From Candidatus Wukongarchaeum yapensis (lineage in GTDB: Archaea; Asgardarchaeota; Wukongarchaeia; Wukongarchaeales; Wukongarchaeaceae): a stretch of DNA of 6,603 bases. How positions within the stretch are numbered: position 1 is the stretch's first letter; each line of letters opens with the position of its first letter. Shown in pieces: positions 1-6,603 of the stretch. The position numbers and the translations under genes are program-made. The notes under the pieces were generated by a model. It had not been told where the DNA came from, searched no databases, and worked only from the letters and a program-made list of their open reading frames with translations. The stretch is taken from NCBI GenBank assembly GCA_016840425.1, contig JAEOSI010000128.1, forward strand, positions 1 through 6,603, given 5' to 3'.

Positions 1-1196
1 AGTTCAGGGAGTTTATCTGTATCTTTTGAAGGTTCAGGTTTGGAAACAGTCTCTGTTAAAATCTTTAAATCTTCTGCTTCAATATTAAAAACACATGCTT
101 TCCCCTCACTAGATTTACACTCACTTTCAACCACTTCTAAAACTTTAAACCCAAAACCTTCAAAGATTCCATGAATAACGCCTGCAGACCAATTACACAA
201 ACCAACACTTTCACCATGCCCTTTAATAAAACTACACAACCAACACTCTTCATCCCTCAAAACCCCGCTAATTTTTCCCTCATCCCTACGAGAAAAACTT
301 GCTTGAACTTTTGTCCCAAAAAAATTAAACCAAAACCTTTTAACAAATTCTTCCAAAAAATCATCGCTTATATCCTTATTAGGCAAGTCAAGGAGACTTA
401 AGAGCTTAAAAGTGACATCTCTTCCACACTTATAAAAATCCTTTGAAGAAAAAGCCTTTGAAGAAAAAGCCTTACGAATACTCCCATAAACCAAAGAACA
501 TCCAAGAGGATACTTTCCCCCACTAAAAGAAGGTAAAAAACCCTTAACTCGATCAACTAAACGTTTAAACCAACCTGCACCACTATCCTTAACCAAACCT
601 CCAAGGAATAAACGATTAAAATCTTCATCTACCCTTTCCATATCAAGCTCAACAACCTCCTCCCGACCAAACCTACCAACAACAAGTCCTTCATCACCCT
701 TCCTCTCCACAATTTTTGAGAAACCTAACTCCTTTTTTCCCCTAAAACTCGAAAAAATCCTCTTAAAAATTGCGGGAAGATCATCATAAGAACTCTCATC
801 CTTCACTTTAGAAACCGCTTCTCGCAACAATTCTCTAATAACTTTCATATTCTCATTATCCCTCCCCTCAACCACCATAACCGCCATGTGCGGAAGTAAT
901 GCCCCTCTCTTCCCGAGAAGAGGCACATGTTCTACGATCACCACATCGTCTTCCCGGCTAAAAGTATCAGTAAACTCTGAGGCCACTTGTATCAGGCCAA
1001 GCCTTGCAGGATCATTAGCCTCGTAAGCAAACCAAGAACCTCTTGAAGAATAAAAATGACGCATAGCTGTTCCTATAACCTCATCAAACCAAAATGTGTA
1101 AATACCCACAATTCCAAGAGAATCAAGACACTTCTTTGTTTCTTCGTCAAAATCAATGGAAACAGGCTCTATTTTCATCCTTTCTATTCCCACCAT
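1..1196 (-). CDS. Longin/uDENN-like domain fused to a V4R (TRAPP Bet3-like) domain; partial, 3' end lies beyond the left edge
   Basis: Manual translation: open minus frame from an in-frame stop at 1263-1265 to the left edge, first ATG at 1196 (alternative ATG 1178), at least 398 aa. N-terminal region GIVGIYTFWFDEVIGTAMRHFYS...PARLGLIQVASEF...VVIVEHV...HMAVMVVE...MKVIRELLREAVSKV...LPAIFKRIFSSF (about 1115-744) fits the longin beta-beta-alpha-beta-beta-beta-alpha-alpha pattern and the uDENN-type FD-x3-G opening. C-terminal region FYKCGRDVTFKLL...EEFVKRFWFNFFG...ECWLCSF...LCNWSAGVIHGIFEGFGFKVLEVVESECKSSEGKACVFNI (about 440-80) carries the V4R C...C...G...E-x-C-x6-7-C-x-F signature. A P/S/K/T/D-rich linker (TETVSKPEPSKDTDKLPE) follows at the edge. 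CDS and V4R calls are firm; the longin call is less so. Confidence 0.8.
   Translation of the reverse strand, partial: MVGIERMKIEPVSIDFDEETKKCLDSLGIVGIYTFWFDEVIGTAMRHFYSSRGSWFAYEANDPARLGLIQVASEFTDTFSREDDVVIVEHVPLLGKRGALLPHMAVMVVEGRDNENMKVIRELLREAVSKVKDESSYDDLPAIFKRIFSSFRGKKELGFSKIVERKGDEGLVVGRFGREEVVELDMERVDEDFNRLFLGGLVKDSGAGWFKRLVDRVKGFLPSFSGGKYPLGCSLVYGSIRKAFSSKAFSSKDFYKCGRDVTFKLLSLLDLPNKDISDDFLEEFVKRFWFNFFGTKVQASFSRRDEGKISGVLRDEECWLCSFIKGHGESVGLCNWSAGVIHGIFEGFGFKVLEVVESECKSSEGKACVFNIEAEDLKILTETVSKPEPSKDTDKLPE
440..473. repeat. Perfect 15-bp tandem duplication, in frame within gene 1
   Basis: ctttgaagaaaaagc at 441-455 and 456-470, plus a partial ctt; encodes AFSSK twice (KAFSSKAFSSK) on the minus strand. 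Confidence 0.9.
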
Positions 1197-1266
1197 TTTT
1201 TCATTCCAAATATCTACAAAAACCAAAAACTCCTTAAAGATCCCATAAGTAAATAAATATAATTAA

Positions 1267-1280
1267 AAAACTTAAGTTTT
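1267..1280. promoter_or_regulatory. Perfect 14-bp palindrome in the divergent intergenic region, possible operator
   Basis: AAAACTTAAGTTTT is its own reverse complement and lies between the divergent starts at 1196 and 1440. The function is inferred. Confidence 0.3.
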
Positions 1281-1374
1281 ACCCAAGAAAAAACTGTTTT
1301 AAGAAAGATTTCAGCGGAAAAACCTTTTAACACATTTTTTTCCTTCTATGAAAGGTTCTTCATCGACCATCGCT

Positions 1375-1388
1375 AAAAAATATAAATA
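1375..1388 (+). promoter_or_regulatory. Putative archaeal BRE/TATA promoter for GTPase 1
   Basis: A-rich run followed by TATAAATA (1381-1388), about 50-60 nt upstream of the start codon. Confidence 0.4.
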
Positions 1389-1439
1389 ATGTGAAAAACT
1401 TTTCTTACCCGCTGAGAGGTAAAAAGTGAGAATTGTTAG

Positions 1440-2054
1440 GTGAACTCTTTGGAAAATGGCGCGAAAAACAGGTACCTTTGGAAGATACTTCTTTTGGGTG
1501 ATGGCAGCGTAGGAAAAAGTAGTATCAGAAGCGTCTTTATAGGCGAAGAGTTTAAAGAGATGATGCGCGCCACCATAGGCGCAGATATAACAAAAAAAAC
1601 CATGGATATAAACGGCAACATGATCACCTACATAATATATGACCTCGCAGGACAACCACACTTCGAAGTCGTTCGAGATCTTTTCTACCTAGGAGCCCAA
1701 GGAGCTCTCCTAATATTCGACATAACCAATAAAAGATCCCTTTACAACATACAAGGAGGATGGGTTAAAAACCTGTACCGCCTAGCAGGACACGTCCCAG
1801 CAGTTCTTATAGGAAATAAAATAGACCTCGAAGCAGAAAGGACCGTCACAAAAGAAGACGTAGAAGAACTACTAAAAACGATCTTAAACAACCACACAGA
1901 AAATCTCACCTACATCGAAACAAGTGCAAAAACCGGGGAAAACATAGAAAAACCCTTCATAATCCTTGGAGAACTCATACTAAAAATGAAAAATAAACAA
2001 AAAAGAAAAATACAAACACAAACAAAACATCCCCGAAAATCCACCATAAAATAA
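1440..2054 (+). CDS. Rab-like small GTPase (Ras superfamily), paralog 1
   Basis: G1 GDGSVGKSS, G2 ATIGAD, G3 YDLAGQ, FYLGAQGALLIFDIT, G4 NKID, G5 ETSAK. Basic C-terminal tail, no Cys prenylation motif. The start may be TTG at 1449, which has AGGTGA (1438-1443) as an SD-like motif 5 nt upstream. Confidence 0.95.
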   Translation: MNSLENGAKNRYLWKILLLGDGSVGKSSIRSVFIGEEFKEMMRATIGADITKKTMDINGNMITYIIYDLAGQPHFEVVRDLFYLGAQGALLIFDITNKRSLYNIQGGWVKNLYRLAGHVPAVLIGNKIDLEAERTVTKEDVEELLKTILNNHTENLTYIETSAKTGENIEKPFIILGELILKMKNKQKRKIQTQTKHPRKSTIK

Positions 2055-2286: not shown

Positions 2287-2841
2287 ATGGAAACTTCGCT
2301 TAAAAAAAAGAATTCAAAGACGGTTCATCGCCTTTGGACGCGCAGGTATAAGTGCATATGTTTGGGAGAATGGTCGGTAGGAAAAAGCTCCATCGCGAAA
2401 AGATTTTGCGACGGAACCTTCTCAGGAACATATCTACCCACCATAGGATGCGACTTCTTAACAAAAATAATAAAGATCGAAAACGAGACCATAAAGCTCA
2501 TAATATGGGATATTGCAGGACAAAGACTCTTTGCAAGCTTTAGAAGAGACTTCTACGAAGGAGCCCAAGGCGCCCTCCTAATCTTTGACATAACAAGACC
2601 AGAAAGCCTCCCACCCTTAAAAGAATGGAAGGAAGAAACCTTAAACGTTTGCGGAGAAATACCCTTCGTAATGTGCGCAAACAAAATAGACCTAGAAAGC
2701 ATGATAAGCAAAATAGAAGCACAAAAATTCGCAGAAAAAATAGACACACCCCTCCTATACACAAGCGCAAAAACCGGAGAAAACATAGAAGAAGCCTTCA
2801 CCCTCCTCACAGAAAAAATGTACAAAAACAAAAAAAACTAA
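2287..2841 (+). CDS. Rab-like small GTPase (Ras superfamily), paralog 2
   Basis: G1 GEWSVGKSS, G2 YLPTIGCDF (RabF1-like IGxDF), KLIIWDIAGQ (RabF2-like plus G3), FYEGAQGALLIFDIT, G4 NKID, G5 TSAK. Basic N-terminal extension, no prenylation motif. Confidence 0.95.
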   Translation: METSLKKKNSKTVHRLWTRRYKCICLGEWSVGKSSIAKRFCDGTFSGTYLPTIGCDFLTKIIKIENETIKLIIWDIAGQRLFASFRRDFYEGAQGALLIFDITRPESLPPLKEWKEETLNVCGEIPFVMCANKIDLESMISKIEAQKFAEKIDTPLLYTSAKTGENIEEAFTLLTEKMYKNKKN

Positions 2842-3060: not shown

Positions 3061-5340
3061 GTGGTACACCTTATGGAAAAAACAATCAAGAAAAAAACGA
3101 TCTTAAGATTAACAACCTTTATCCTAATCATCACACTCCTCATACCCCTATCTACCCCCTTATTCGATGAAAAAATAAACGAAGAAAACCAACTACAAGA
3201 AGTAAGTCTAGAATTAGACGTTATAACAGGAGATCTCTCAGCAAGACTTTCAGTCACTCCTGATCCAGCTATAAGAAAGCCTAATATGAATCCGATCCAT
3301 GTCATAGGATGGCTTCATGTAGGAAGCTATAACATTCCGGATGCGACTATATATGTCCTCTGGAATAATACTGAGGTCAACACTGGTACAACAGGTAGTG
3401 ATGGCACTTTTGACATTCCTCTTACTTTCAACCATATTAGGTATCGAGAAATCGGTAATATTAACGTAACAGCATGGTACAAAGGAGGAGAGTCCACTTT
3501 GCCAATAGCGACCTCCGAATTTATAACAGTTTATGCAACCTCTATGATGGTTATTAGTCTTTCTTCTCAAATCGTTAATCCTGGTGGTTCGTTTGATGCT
3601 TCTTTAACACTTTCATATGATAATGGTACACGTTTAGCTGGAGCTAATGCGTATCTTAGGTTATGGAATGGTACGGAATATGGACCTCAAGTAACAGATT
3701 TTAATGGACAAACAACTTTTACAATTGATGTAAATATTTCTGAATCTACAGGCTTTGATAAACCTGTTAGGGGAGCTGCTGATGTTAGTACTATACCAGG
3801 GGTTTCTCCATATCTTTTAGGAAGTGCTGGTATAATTGGTGATACTTGGGCTAATAATACAGCAAATATAGACGTTCTAATAATTGCTATTATAACTTTT
3901 GATGTTAGCGCTGATACTATCATTGGTAACTTACCTAATCCGCCAGTTCCGCCAACTATTCCTGAAGCATATAGAGGTACTTATTATGTGTGTCTAAATG
4001 GTACACTAAAAGATTCTTTTGGCCAACCAATAGTTGGGGAACAAGTCCAAGCAGCAATAGATGGTCAAGCTGTATCCGGTGCAATTAATTTTACAGGGGT
4101 TGGAGGATATTTTGAAATCGTCTTCCTTCTACCAATAACCACTGCAGTCAAAAATGTTAATATGACTGTAACAGAGAACAATGATACTCTTGATTCTGCT
4201 TCTGATGAAAAACCTCTTCGAGTTCTTGCAGGAACATATCTTAATAACGTTGATAAGGATCTTGATTTTTATTACAGAGGCGAAATCCTCTATGTGTATG
4301 GTAATCTTTATGATGATCAAAACAATCCTGTTACTTCAGAATTTGTTTCAGCTTTCCTTACTAACCAGAGTATCGGTTATAACTCTCCTACTTATGCAGA
4401 TCAAACGGATGGTTCTGGTTATTTCTCAATAGGAGTTGATACAAGCAGTGTACCTGCAGGAAACAGCTCCTGTGATTTGAACGTTACTTTTTATGGAGCA
4501 CCACCCCATTATGATCCGTCTTCTCTTGGCTTTTTTATTATTGTTAACTTTTTTACAAATTTTGATTTTACAGAAATCTTTCTCGGAGGCGTTTCTATAG
4601 ACGATTTATCAACGCTTGAAAAATCTACTGATTATAATGTGGAAGTACGGCTTGTGGATGAGTTTGGAAGATCTATAACAGGAAGAACAGTTGAAATCTT
4701 CTGGGATGGAAATAGTATTCTTAATACGACCACCGATGCTTCAGGAAAAGTTTACACTTCGTTCATTACAAGTGATTATAGCACCGATCTTCTTCCCTTA
4801 CAGTTTTCTTTCTATTACTTAGGTGGTTTCCAGCAATACATAGAGACCTATGATTTCTCTTTGAATAATATAGCGCCAACAATAGATAATTTCAGCGCTG
4901 AACCAGGAGAAGTTGTGATTGGAGAATCTTGCACGATAAGTGTAATAGGGTCAGATGATGGGCCTCTCTCTAATGTTACTTTAGTGTTAACTGATCCTGA
5001 TGGTAATGAGACCAGGGTGACACAGCAAGTAACCACTTCTTTAAACTTTGACATAGAATTCGTTATAGATACTTCTCAATCTGAATATGATGTTGTAGGT
5101 AATTGGACCTTCTACCTTATTGTTATTGACAGAGAAGGAGAATCTAGCTTTTCAGCCCAAGGACAGTTTACTGTAATAGAAAAGGAAGGCATGGATATTG
5201 GCGATCTAACCCTTGTTGTAGCTATTATAGCTGCTAATGTGTTAGCAGCAACTTCAGGCTACTTCATCGCAGGAAAGATAAGGGCTCAAGGGGGTTTAGG
5301 TCCATTTTTACACAGCTTAAAGACCAAATTCAAAAAATGA
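3061..5340 (+). CDS. Membrane-anchored cell-surface protein with tandem Ig-like / invasin (Big_1-like) beta-sandwich repeats, probably N-glycosylated
   Basis: N-terminal basic plus hydrophobic signal or anchor (KKKTILRLTTFILIITLLIPL). C-terminal TM helix (LTLVVAIIAANVLAATSGYFIAG) and short basic tail. Five repeats resembling G-x-L-x-D-x2-G-x-P-I-x4-V...T-D-x2-G-x-F plus a final Ig-like unit (NIAPTIDNF...NWTFYLIVIDREG). 18 N-x-S/T sequons counted by hand. ATG 3073, preceded by GGTGG, is the more likely start. Confidence 0.85.
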   Translation: MVHLMEKTIKKKTILRLTTFILIITLLIPLSTPLFDEKINEENQLQEVSLELDVITGDLSARLSVTPDPAIRKPNMNPIHVIGWLHVGSYNIPDATIYVLWNNTEVNTGTTGSDGTFDIPLTFNHIRYREIGNINVTAWYKGGESTLPIATSEFITVYATSMMVISLSSQIVNPGGSFDASLTLSYDNGTRLAGANAYLRLWNGTEYGPQVTDFNGQTTFTIDVNISESTGFDKPVRGAADVSTIPGVSPYLLGSAGIIGDTWANNTANIDVLIIAIITFDVSADTIIGNLPNPPVPPTIPEAYRGTYYVCLNGTLKDSFGQPIVGEQVQAAIDGQAVSGAINFTGVGGYFEIVFLLPITTAVKNVNMTVTENNDTLDSASDEKPLRVLAGTYLNNVDKDLDFYYRGEILYVYGNLYDDQNNPVTSEFVSAFLTNQSIGYNSPTYADQTDGSGYFSIGVDTSSVPAGNSSCDLNVTFYGAPPHYDPSSLGFFIIVNFFTNFDFTEIFLGGVSIDDLSTLEKSTDYNVEVRLVDEFGRSITGRTVEIFWDGNSILNTTTDASGKVYTSFITSDYSTDLLPLQFSFYYLGGFQQYIETYDFSLNNIAPTIDNFSAEPGEVVIGESCTISVIGSDDGPLSNVTLVLTDPDGNETRVTQQVTTSLNFDIEFVIDTSQSEYDVVGNWTFYLIVIDREGESSFSAQGQFTVIEKEGMDIGDLTLVVAIIAANVLAATSGYFIAGKIRAQGGLGPFLHSLKTKFKK

Positions 5341-5490: not shown

Positions 5491-6603
5491 TTGGAGAAGT
5501 TAAAGTTTTGGCTCCTTGATATTAATTATAAGATGGAAGAAGGGCTTCCTATTATCTATTTATGGGGGAAGGATGAGCGTTCAAGGACGATACTTGTTAG
5601 AGAGGAAGGATTTCGCCCCTATATCTATCTACGTTTAAATGAAGGAGCGAACTTAGATAGAGTTATGGAAGAGGTTAGAAAGCTTTCCGGTGAGAAGAAT
5701 CCTATCCTTAAGGTTGAGCCTGTTAAAAAAAGTTTTTTTGGTAAAGAAGTTACTGTGGTAAAAGTTACTTGTACAAGTCCTCCGATGGTTCCTGTTTTAA
5801 GGGAGGAAGCAAGTAGAATTGAAGGTGTTTTGGAGTATCTTGAGGCAGACATAAGGTTTACACAGAGATATCTGATTGATATGGATTTTTTCCCTTGTTC
5901 TTGGGTTGAAATTAAGGTCGAAAAACGAGAAGAGAAAACAATAAAGAAAGGAAAAAAAGAAGGAGAAAAGAAAGCAGGAGTTAAGCGTTCTTTAAACGTT
6001 GATGAGATTTTTGTTTTATTAAAGCCACCAGAGCCTTTGGAGGAGGAGAGTAAAAGCCTAGATGTACCCCTTTTAAAAGTTTTTGTTTTTGATATTGAAA
6101 CCTATAATCCTCGAGGTACACCTTCTGCCGAAGTAGATCCTACGATAATTGTGGGTTTCTTATATTCAGAAGAAAGTAATGGGGAAGAGGTTGGTCAGGT
6201 TAAACTTTTTACAGCAGATAAGCTTGATGATAAGAAAGTTATCAAGGATTTTTCCAAGTTTTTGATAGATTGTGATCCAGATATTGTTATGACGTATAAT
6301 GGCAACTTTTTTGACTGGCCTTATCTTTTAGAGAGGGCTAAGAAAAACAAAGTGAAATTAATTGTCGGGAGAGATGGTTCTGAGCCCCACGCCTCAACTT
6401 ATGGTCATATAAGCGTTACTGGCCGGGGAAACGTGGATCTTTACGATCTTGCCAGGCAACTTTACGAGGTTAAAAGGAAGACTTTGGAGAATGTTGCAGA
6501 ATACTTAGGTGTTACAAAGATAAGTGAACGGGTTGAAATTAATAAATTGGATATTTGGAAGTTCTGGGACGATGAAAAGAAAAGAGAGACTCTCTTAAAT
6601 TAC
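5491..6603 (+). CDS. polB: Archaeal family B DNA polymerase (PolB3-like); N-terminal and 3'-5' exonuclease domains, partial, runs off the right edge
   Basis: Manual translation, 371 codons open to the edge: MEKLKFWLLDINYKMEEGLPIIYLWG...FRPYIY...PPMVPVLRE...LEADIRFTQRYLID...ExoI FDIETY (6088-6105), ExoII YNGNFFDWPYL (6295-6327), GRGNVDLY...KRKTLENVAEYLG, with ExoIII beginning at the edge (LLNY). Residues matching the archaeal uracil-binding pocket (LDINY, RPY, VP, EADI) are present. Confidence 0.96.
   Translation, partial: MEKLKFWLLDINYKMEEGLPIIYLWGKDERSRTILVREEGFRPYIYLRLNEGANLDRVMEEVRKLSGEKNPILKVEPVKKSFFGKEVTVVKVTCTSPPMVPVLREEASRIEGVLEYLEADIRFTQRYLIDMDFFPCSWVEIKVEKREEKTIKKGKKEGEKKAGVKRSLNVDEIFVLLKPPEPLEEESKSLDVPLLKVFVFDIETYNPRGTPSAEVDPTIIVGFLYSEESNGEEVGQVKLFTADKLDDKKVIKDFSKFLIDCDPDIVMTYNGNFFDWPYLLERAKKNKVKLIVGRDGSEPHASTYGHISVTGRGNVDLYDLARQLYEVKRKTLENVAEYLGVTKISERVEINKLDIWKFWDDEKKRETLLNY

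Follow-up and report, generated by a model that had tools for sequence, protein, structure and literature searches.

A longin-type domain fused to a V4R/TRAPPC3-like domain beside two Rab-like GTPase genes in a wukongarchaeal genome

In the eukaryotic TRAPP complex, Bet3-fold and longin subunits jointly act as the guanine-nucleotide exchange factor (GEF) of Rab1 and Rab11. A longin–TRAPPC3 fusion from Heimdallarchaeota (MBD3190748.1) has been published as an AlphaFold2 (AF2) model (Tran, Akil, Senju & Robinson 2024, Commun Biol, PMC10933270), and Asgard archaea are known to join longin domains to many different partners (Liu et al., bioRxiv 10.1101/2020.10.19.343400). Rab-like GTPases are numerous in Asgard genomes, as are longin, roadblock and V4R/TRAPPC3-like proteins. 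In MK-D1, the genes for these proteins are generally unclustered (Tran et al. 2024, PMC10933270), so individual GTPases have stayed unmatched to regulators. Here we describe a gene for a longin–V4R/TRAPPC3-like protein (the longin–V4R protein) in a 6,603-nucleotide window from Candidatus Wukongarchaeum yapensis; by the window we mean this whole stretch, the first 6603 bases of contig JAEOSI010000128.1 (G000:C127), which belongs to a genome bin of 2.16 Mb that is 92% complete. The coding sequence (3..1196, minus strand) comprises 398 of about 410 residues, its 3′ end being cut by the contig end. It lies head-to-head with a gene for a Rab-like small GTPase, after which comes a second such gene, making the locus a concrete candidate for a regulator–GTPase pair or trio.

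A longin-type domain at the N terminus

An initial annotation, made from the letters alone, had called the N terminus of the protein 'longin/uDENN-like'. We modelled this domain (residues 9–150; 747..1172, minus strand) with AF2 from a 20-sequence joint alignment with stand-alone Asgard homologues. The model has a predicted local distance difference test (pLDDT) of 82.8, a predicted template modelling score (pTM) of 0.78 and the elements α0-β1-β2-α1-β3-β4-β5-α2-α3 (H18–26, E29–38, E42–50, H55–73, E78–81, E84–94, E100–110, H117–129 and H134–150), which is the longin order with an extra N-terminal helix (H18–26) of roadblock type before β1.

Structural comparison supports the longin class. In VIA, which is independent of Foldseek, the highest Z scores are to AP2 mu (8.9), C9orf72 (8.6) and the C-terminal domains of Lokiarchaeota Rag-like proteins (8.6 and 8.4), followed by SEA/NPRL (8.2), a Lokiarchaeota longin (8.1) and the FLCN complex (8.0), with AP mu/sigma spanning 8.2–8.9; sedlin (7.4), DENND10 (7.4), Bet5 (7.3), Mon1–Ccz1 (7.3) and synbindin (7.1) rank lower. 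These values are middling (best 8.9), and no more than 1 Z separates the longin from the roadblock rows. Foldseek retrieves the Lokiarchaeota Rag-like C-terminal domains, GATOR1/SEAC, AP sigma, Ykt6 and the Lokiarchaeota longin at E 4e-3 to 4e-2 (best 3.7e-3), and an Atlas shape search gives TM scores of 0.65 to C9orf72 and 0.54 to DENND11/Avl9. Of the 50 best VIA rows, almost all are longin, roadblock or related profilin folds. The model comparisons support a longin-type platform, with Z scores of 8–9 to longin and roadblock domains. For the uDENN half of the label, the comparisons single out no subtype, C9orf72 and DENND10/11 scoring level with AP mu/sigma and NPRL; what follows the domain is not a DENN core and dDENN but a linker and a V4R/TRAPPC3 fold. 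No Pfam family matches residues 1–170 or the homologous stand-alone family, and Robl_LC7, which matches at 14 other places in the genome, does not match the N-terminal domain.

A weak match in a genome labelled Njordarchaeales (P0008) led to this stand-alone family, whose members are 136–185 amino acids (aa) long and come from three other Asgard families. hhalign aligns it with the N-terminal domain at 94% (E 9.5e-8, 138 columns; query sequences excluded from the target). The family (alignment A5; P0008 and P0032–P0040) is unannotated and has an LG..G...FD...G(P) motif in common with the N-terminal domain; a profile search with it added just nine small proteins, all without a Pfam family. Three variants (L052, L054 and L055) are fused to transmembrane and winged helix-turn-helix (wHTH)-like regions, and no member of the family was seen with V4R. 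These three, from Njordarchaeales-like genomes, are 250–320 aa long, with a transmembrane helix at the N terminus, the copy of the domain at the C terminus and a middle region in between.

The host genome also encodes a 393-aa paralogue (L079; G000:C63:3463-4644, minus strand) whose first ~130 residues match the family (E 7e-10). Its other 260 residues have no Pfam family, and the protein could be a regulator made of a longin and a larger domain. A faint tblastn match beside a GTPase on contig C7 was rejected as chance, lying within a transposase-like open reading frame (ORF).

A divergent V4R/TRAPPC3-superfamily domain at the C terminus

Between the two domains lie a variable low-complexity linker (residues 151–182; 651..746, minus strand), with pLDDT below 50, indels among orthologues and a ratio of nonsynonymous to synonymous substitution rates (dN/dS) of 0.75, and a conserved helical hairpin (residues 183–228; 513..650, minus strand; DxDFNRLFL...WFK) with many columns invariant among orthologues. 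In a low-confidence model (range 182–405), the hairpin matches the helices with which the MopR/PoxR sensor domains begin. The same hairpin and C-terminal domain occur on an ENA contig of 1307 bases (P0006) behind an unrelated, signal-peptide-like N terminus that takes the place of the longin-type domain; the variant may be real, or the short contig may be chimeric.

The C-terminal domain (residues 229–378; 63..512, minus strand) had been read from its cysteines as V4R-type, and the fold of a low-confidence model and the alignment of the cysteines agree with this. Pfam V4R (PF02830) matches at 78–251 and Pfam TRAPP (PF04051) at 78–362. With gathering cut-offs of 31 and 27 bits, respectively, V4R scores 27.0–27.6 bits on whole proteins and 31.6 on the six-frame fragment 78–251, and TRAPP scores 21.2–24.6 bits, below its cut-off and over profile positions 55–152 only, in all six family members: a sub-threshold match, yet a reproducible one. 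For scale, proteins of the Thorarchaeota TRAPPC3 (Thor-TRAPPC3) type score 26.3–31.9 bits on TRAPP and 10–15 on V4R, and ordinary Asgard V4R domains score 35–110 bits on V4R without matching TRAPP. Going by the Pfam scores only, the domain would stand between the two, as had been proposed, but other comparisons do not bear this out firmly: hhalign favours ordinary V4R (97%, E 8e-11) over Thor-TRAPPC3 (92.8%, E 4e-7), a local hidden Markov model (HMM) does likewise (40 versus 18 bits), and the structures tie. Each of these profile comparisons aligns only the last 60–75 residues of the domain.

For the structures, a full-length AF2 model from six near-identical sequences (mean pLDDT 47.8, most of the core 57–77) was used, for coarse fold matching only. 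On this low-confidence model the C-terminal domain has an alpha/beta fold of the V4R/H-NOX type. Foldseek ranks Thor-TRAPPC3, TPC6 and TRAPPC3 at the top. VIA gives Z scores of 10.5–11.5 to MopR/PoxR/DmpR (MopR 11.5; residues 182–405, 157–165 aligned), 10.2–10.6 to TPC6B/TPC6 (TPC6B 10.6) and 10.2–10.4 to Bet3 (residues 231–378), then 8.4 to Thor-TRAPPC3, 8.2 to MJ1460 and ~7 to H-NOX. The initial annotation had gone further and called the domain TRAPPC5/6-like, quoting three motifs. All three are found where it placed them (codons of CGRDVTFKLL at 399–428, of EEFVKRFWFNFFGTKV at 306–353 and of LCNWSAGVIHGIF at 162–200), as are the V4R cysteines; the motifs, however, are common to the whole V4R/TRAPPC3 superfamily and TPC6/TPC6B tie with Bet3, leaving no specific signal for TRAPPC5/6.

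In a maximum-likelihood tree of 34 Asgard V4R/TRAPPC3-like domains, the C-terminal domain arises from a polytomy on a long branch of its own, outside a TRAPPC3-type clade (support 99/96) formed by the Thorarchaeota proteins, a gene of the same genome on contig C172 and the C-terminal domain of a second Asgard fusion (L059). Forcing the domain into that clade costs 2.0 log-likelihood units and is not rejected by the approximately unbiased (AU) test (AU p 0.41). The contig C172 gene (C172:4282-4800, minus strand; L078) encodes a stand-alone TRAPPC3-type protein of 172 aa that matches the Thor profile from end to end (62 bits), and Pfam TRAPP does not match it at all. We rejected as a sign of special affinity that the C-terminal domain is the only V4R domain in the genome to match Pfam TRAPP, since the same search misses this TRAPPC3-type gene. 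Within the V4R/TRAPPC3 superfamily, the C-terminal domain stands as a divergent member, with no firm place on either the V4R or the TRAPPC3 side.

A five-cysteine putative zinc site occupies 93..245 (minus strand): C318 (243–245) and C321 (234–236), which lie in CWLC, C334 (195–197), C360 (117–119) and C368 (93–95). All five are invariant among orthologues, with spacing CxxC ... C ... C ... C, and align one-to-one with the invariant cysteines of Thor-TRAPPC3 and also with V4R cysteines. The Thor-TRAPPC3 crystal holds zinc by four cysteines, and in eukaryotic TRAPPC3 the zinc site is replaced by a hydrogen bond (PMC10933270). Judged by the alignment, the five-cysteine site probably binds zinc, and as regards these cysteines the domain is of the archaeal type.

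V4R-type domains are numerous in this 2.16-Mb genome, with ~13 domains in at least 11 ORFs (contigs C116, C123, C117, C191, C159, C189 and C86), including thioredoxin–V4R–V4R, KaiC–V4R and wHTH fusions. Among the other Asgard loci, a second divergent V4R-like gene directly follows a Thor-TRAPPC3-type gene in four (L060:1989-2540, L062:1824-2423, L063:1882-2442 and L068:883-1449); these second genes form a clade of their own (100/99), which suggests a heterodimer pair.

Two Rab-like neighbours

A 243-bp AT-rich spacer with TATA-like runs (1197..1439; GC 0.34) separates the longin–V4R gene from the divergent gene for Rab-like GTPase 1 and, from its composition, would hold divergent promoters. 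Rab-like 1 (1440..2054, plus strand; 204 aa; Pfam Ras 145 bits) has a polybasic C terminus with no C-terminal cysteine, and its best PDB matches are a Thorarchaeota Rab, Rab8A and Rab10. Rab-like 2 (2287..2841, plus strand; 184 aa; Pfam Ras 150 bits) best matches Rab35, the Thorarchaeota Rab, Rab23 and Rab1. Synteny is kept in all relatives with enough flank, for Rab-like 1 in five (L003–L007) and for Rab-like 2 in two (L006 and L007). The genome has ~19 Ras-like GTPase genes, so that direct adjacency is expected for ~2% of genes.

In three genomes of one other Asgard genus, stand-alone homologues of the N-terminal domain (136–151 aa) lie 17–55 bp downstream of a Rab-like GTPase gene on the same strand (L049:834-1911, L050:814-1914 and L056:1501-2560); we regard these pairs as candidate GTPase–regulator operons. 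Coming from a second lineage, this pairing of the longin-type family with a Rab-like GTPase is an independent hint of a link, and a more telling one than the synteny among close relatives. One RNA library has contigs at 250–658, 1509–1756 and 2435–2600, which fall on all three genes and hint weakly at transcription, with DNA carry-over possible; stretches of the window that have no such contig carry no information.

Weighing a link to the Rab-like GTPases

We lean, if only slightly, towards a functional link between the longin–V4R protein and its Rab-like neighbours. In outline, the longin module, probably dimeric, would dock one or both GTPases, by analogy with the longin/roadblock platforms of TRAPP, Mon1–Ccz1, DENN, FLCN, GATOR1 and MglB; dimerisation, and possibly a pocket for a hydrophobic ligand, would come from the V4R/TRAPPC3-like module; and the protein would regulate the nucleotide state or the localisation of a Rab-like switch. 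It may in this way act like a fused longin and Bet3-fold unit of a TRAPP-type regulator, a likeness that does not imply kinship to eukaryotic TRAPP. As for the kind of regulator, our rough apportioning puts a GEF ahead, though as an unlikely outcome taken singly, a GTPase-activating protein (GAP) well behind it, and a scaffold or effector level with the GAP or a shade lower.

Apart from gene order, the link is addressed by complex prediction. Two copies of the N-terminal domain with Rab-like 1 gave 'weak support', scoring 0.42 against 0.19 for the best control, with at least 55% of contacts agreeing between runs and a partner pLDDT of at least 75. The mark is reached by 58 of 80 solved complexes and by 2 of 110 mismatched pairs; among those that reach it, only 7 of the 80 solved complexes, but both mismatched pairs, do so at 0.60 or less.

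Several observations weigh against a GTPase link. First, one of the three complex runs scored 0.01, a pass of this class is more often wrong than right unless the prior is good, and the pass may reflect memory of solved longin/roadblock–GTPase complexes. Second, synteny is seen only within a narrow clade (dS ~0.27), in which gene order is conserved by default, and says little alone. Third, the longin–V4R and GTPase genes are divergent and not co-transcribed, and the longin–V4R gene is followed on its own strand by metabolic genes (F420 ligase-like and pterin-binding). Fourth, within ~1.5 kb there is no GTPase gene for 12 of the 16 stand-alone homologues of the N-terminal domain, nor at the other V4R/TRAPPC3-like loci examined, bar one weak case (L073). 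Fifth, the model of the C-terminal domain comes from six near-identical sequences and has a pLDDT of 48. Finally, V4R domains elsewhere are small-molecule sensors with no GTPase link.

This last point leads to the alternative that survives best, which we consider possible but distinctly the less probable: a small-molecule or metal sensor to which the GTPases are incidental, its V4R domain binding a hydrophobic ligand as in MopR/PoxR and its longin-type domain signalling to some other partner. The best structural Z scores of the C-terminal domain are to the phenol sensors MopR/PoxR/DmpR (11–11.5), the profiles favour ordinary V4R, public records name the protein '4-vinyl reductase' or 'predicted hydrocarbon binding protein', the ~13 V4R domains of the genome occur in the many fusions (thioredoxin, KaiC, wHTH) typical of sensor shuffling, the downstream genes are metabolic, and ligand binding has been proposed for Asgard TRAPPC3/V4R proteins (Tran 2024, PMC10933270). 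A sensor of this kind fits less well with the use of longin and roadblock folds mostly as GTPase platforms, with homologues of the N-terminal domain in GTPase operons of another lineage, with the complex-prediction pass, weak as it is, and with the two Rab-like genes having been kept adjacent.

The boldest form of the regulator reading is a minimal, self-contained TRAPP-like exchange factor, which would pair via both domains into a flat oligomer resembling the TRAPP core and activate one or both adjacent Rab-like GTPases, perhaps in response to a lipid or other hydrophobic ligand in a zinc-stabilised pocket. We think this improbable; if true, it would be a living example of the first cooperation of longin and Bet3 folds on a Rab, before eukaryotes.

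Slightly less probable again is a true single-chain proto-TRAPP, its C-terminal domain kin to the Bet3 family (TRAPPC3/5/6) and its N-terminal domain to the TRAPP longins (Bet5/Trs23); the protein would then be directly related to the core of the eukaryotic Rab GEF. The Pfam TRAPP scores of 21–24.6 bits in all six family members, the Foldseek ranking (Thor-TRAPPC3, TPC6 and TRAPPC3 first), the VIA Z scores of 10.2–10.6 to TPC6B, Bet3 and TPC6, those of the N-terminal domain to sedlin (7.4), Bet5 (7.3) and synbindin (7.1), the Rab-like neighbours and the unrejected grouping with Asgard TRAPPC3-type proteins (AU p 0.41) would all fit such kinship. Yet the TRAPP match is below the gathering score and V4R models score higher; the domain falls outside the 99/96 TRAPPC3-type clade, which includes the genome's own C172:4282-4800; the zinc cysteines, lost from eukaryotic TRAPPC3 (PMC10933270), are kept; and AP, C9orf72, NPRL and Rag domains all score above the TRAPP longins.

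The remaining reading, that there is no functional gene but a chance frame, pseudogene or assembly chimera, might be suggested by the contig terminating within the gene, by a 94%-identical partial copy on another contig (C269) and by the relative with a different N terminus (P0006), and is effectively refuted by the dN/dS of 0.28, by independent environmental contigs that span the contig end and by ~27 near-full-length copies across many samples and sources, the confident fold of the N-terminal domain also speaking against it.

If binding together with exchange or GAP activity is true, the regulator reading would bear directly on the origin of TRAPP-type Rab regulation; if there is no binding or activity, the locus is one more case of lineage-specific shuffling of longin domains in Asgard archaea.

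The gene and its 3′ end

The continuous minus-strand frame reported in the initial annotation is confirmed: it is stop-free over 3..1226, with its left end open. In orthologues the gene is called from the ATG at 1196 (MVGIERMKIEP), and coordinate 78, which the initial annotation gave as its other limit, is the end of the Pfam V4R match (78–251). The gene had also rightly been described as missed by the ORF track; it is absent from a listing of closed ORFs because its frame runs off the contig end, and is listed only when open ends are allowed. Orthologues are 80–98% identical. Against an orthologue of 84% identity, dN/dS is 0.28 overall, 0.17 in the N-terminal domain, 0.23 in the C-terminal domain and 0.75 in the linker, showing that both domains are under purifying selection.

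The last stretch in the window (residues 379–398; 3..62, minus strand) is the start of a Pro/Glu/Lys-rich C-terminal tail, with 12 further residues off the contig. This low-complexity stretch had been taken for a linker to at least one more domain, which four agreeing results on the left flank refute. On contig C269 of the same bin the frame stops 11 codons beyond the window edge; full-length orthologues are 406–410 aa long and end in ...DKLPEIPSPVLPKPLEE; environmental contigs bridge the contig end, the loose end translating as IPSPVLPKPL; and the genes past the stop, F420-ligase-like and then pterin-binding, lie on the same strand as the longin–V4R gene. The protein ends 11–12 residues past the edge, and at ~410 aa has no extra downstream domain.

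Contig C269 (G000:C269:1-765; L002) carries a 94%-identical copy of window positions 1–774, the 3′ two-thirds of the gene, and runs on into the genes downstream, which are syntenic. Co-assembly of two strains, and not a duplication, is the most likely cause of the break inside the gene.

Distribution

The close relatives carry the label Candidatus Hodarchaeota or Candidatus Wukongarchaeota archaeon, and the protein is entered in public records as hypothetical, '4-vinyl reductase' or 'predicted hydrocarbon binding protein'; metagenomes from marine sediment, mangrove and marsh contain the DNA. When 1.84 billion representatives were searched exhaustively with phmmer, the protein matched nothing beyond its own cluster and a fragment, and a word-indexed sequence search returned five close orthologues only. 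Among 400 sampled Asgard genomes no relative outside the narrow clade appeared beyond weak domain-level matches, and neither phmmer against the PDB nor a PDB profile search with the C-terminal domain gave a meaningful match. By these searches, both domains are sequence orphans confined to one narrow clade.

Other genes in the window

To the right of the Rab-like genes, 3061–5340 (plus strand) encodes a protein of 759 aa with N- and C-terminal hydrophobic helices and weak Ig-like, macroglobulin and carboxypeptidase-regulatory matches, probably a cell-surface protein. At 5491–6603 (plus strand) lies part of a gene for a family B DNA polymerase; it encodes the N-terminal exonuclease portion and leaves the window at the right end.

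Comparison with known systems

The published Heimdallarchaeota protein MBD3190748.1 is, like the longin–V4R protein, an N-terminal longin joined to a C-terminal TRAPPC3/V4R fold in one Asgard chain; compared by description, it differs in that neither the hairpin nor Rab-like neighbours are described for it (PMC10933270). A 296-aa protein in another Asgard genome (L059:1501-2388, minus strand; genome G009), with a longin/roadblock-like N terminus (Atlas features 0.94; Asgard longin/roadblock clusters), is probably the kind of fusion that Tran et al. 2024 published. It differs from the longin–V4R protein in having its C-terminal domain inside the TRAPPC3-type clade and an N-terminal domain with no detectable similarity to ours (hhalign 0.2%). 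Because of these two differences the longin–V4R protein looks, by sequence, like a fusion independent of the L059 type. Another longin-like–V4R architecture exists in the same genus (L080, G000:C196:321-1736, plus strand; and L076, genome G002): at ~470–497 aa, these proteins have an N-terminal domain with a GP motif, a winged-helix region and a C-terminal divergent V4R, and hhalign detects no relation between the N-terminal domains (3.6% for L076).

Thor-TRAPPC3 (PDB 7YH2 and 7YH3) has the same fold as the C-terminal domain (Foldseek rank 1; VIA Z 8.4) and five aligned cysteines from which a zinc site is expected; it is a stand-alone homodimer of 157 aa, and only the last ~60 residues of our protein align with it, at 18 bits. 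The bacterial V4R sensors MopR, PoxR and DmpR (PDB 5KBI, 5FRW and 6IY8) and archaeal MJ1460 (2OSO) likewise have a cysteine-based metal site, and MopR/PoxR give the highest structural Z (11–11.5), preceding helices included; ordinary V4R is the best profile match. Theirs, however, feed AAA+/HTH activators, whereas the V4R domain described here is fused to a longin fold, with no DNA-binding domain.

The N-terminal domain has the same β-β-α-β-β-β-α-α core as the longins of C9orf72/SMCR8, NPRL2/3 (GATOR1/SEAC), FLCN/FNIP and AP mu/sigma (Z 8.0–8.9 over 104–131 residues), the Lokiarchaeota roadblock–longin (8YQG) and the C-terminal roadblock domains of Lokiarchaeota Rag-like proteins (8YL2 and 9M28). 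It differs from known longins in lacking sequence similarity to them, in its added roadblock-type helix and in being followed by a V4R fold and no DENN core. Its true sequence homologues, the stand-alone Asgard family, are single-domain proteins or fused to transmembrane and wHTH-like regions.

A longin–TRAPPC3 fusion in Heimdallarchaeota (PMC10933270) and a crystallised Thor-TRAPPC3 were already known. New here are two domains that are sequence orphans, an N-terminal domain belonging to a small unannotated family, an apparently independent fusion and fixed Rab-like neighbours. The eukaryotic TRAPP core (Bet3/TRAPPC3, TRAPPC6 and TRAPPC5 with Bet5/TRAPPC1, Trs23/TRAPPC4 and sedlin) contains both fold types, which the locus described here places beside Rab-like genes; in TRAPP they are separate subunits of a hetero-oligomer, whereas the longin–V4R protein joins them in a single chain that retains its zinc cysteines.

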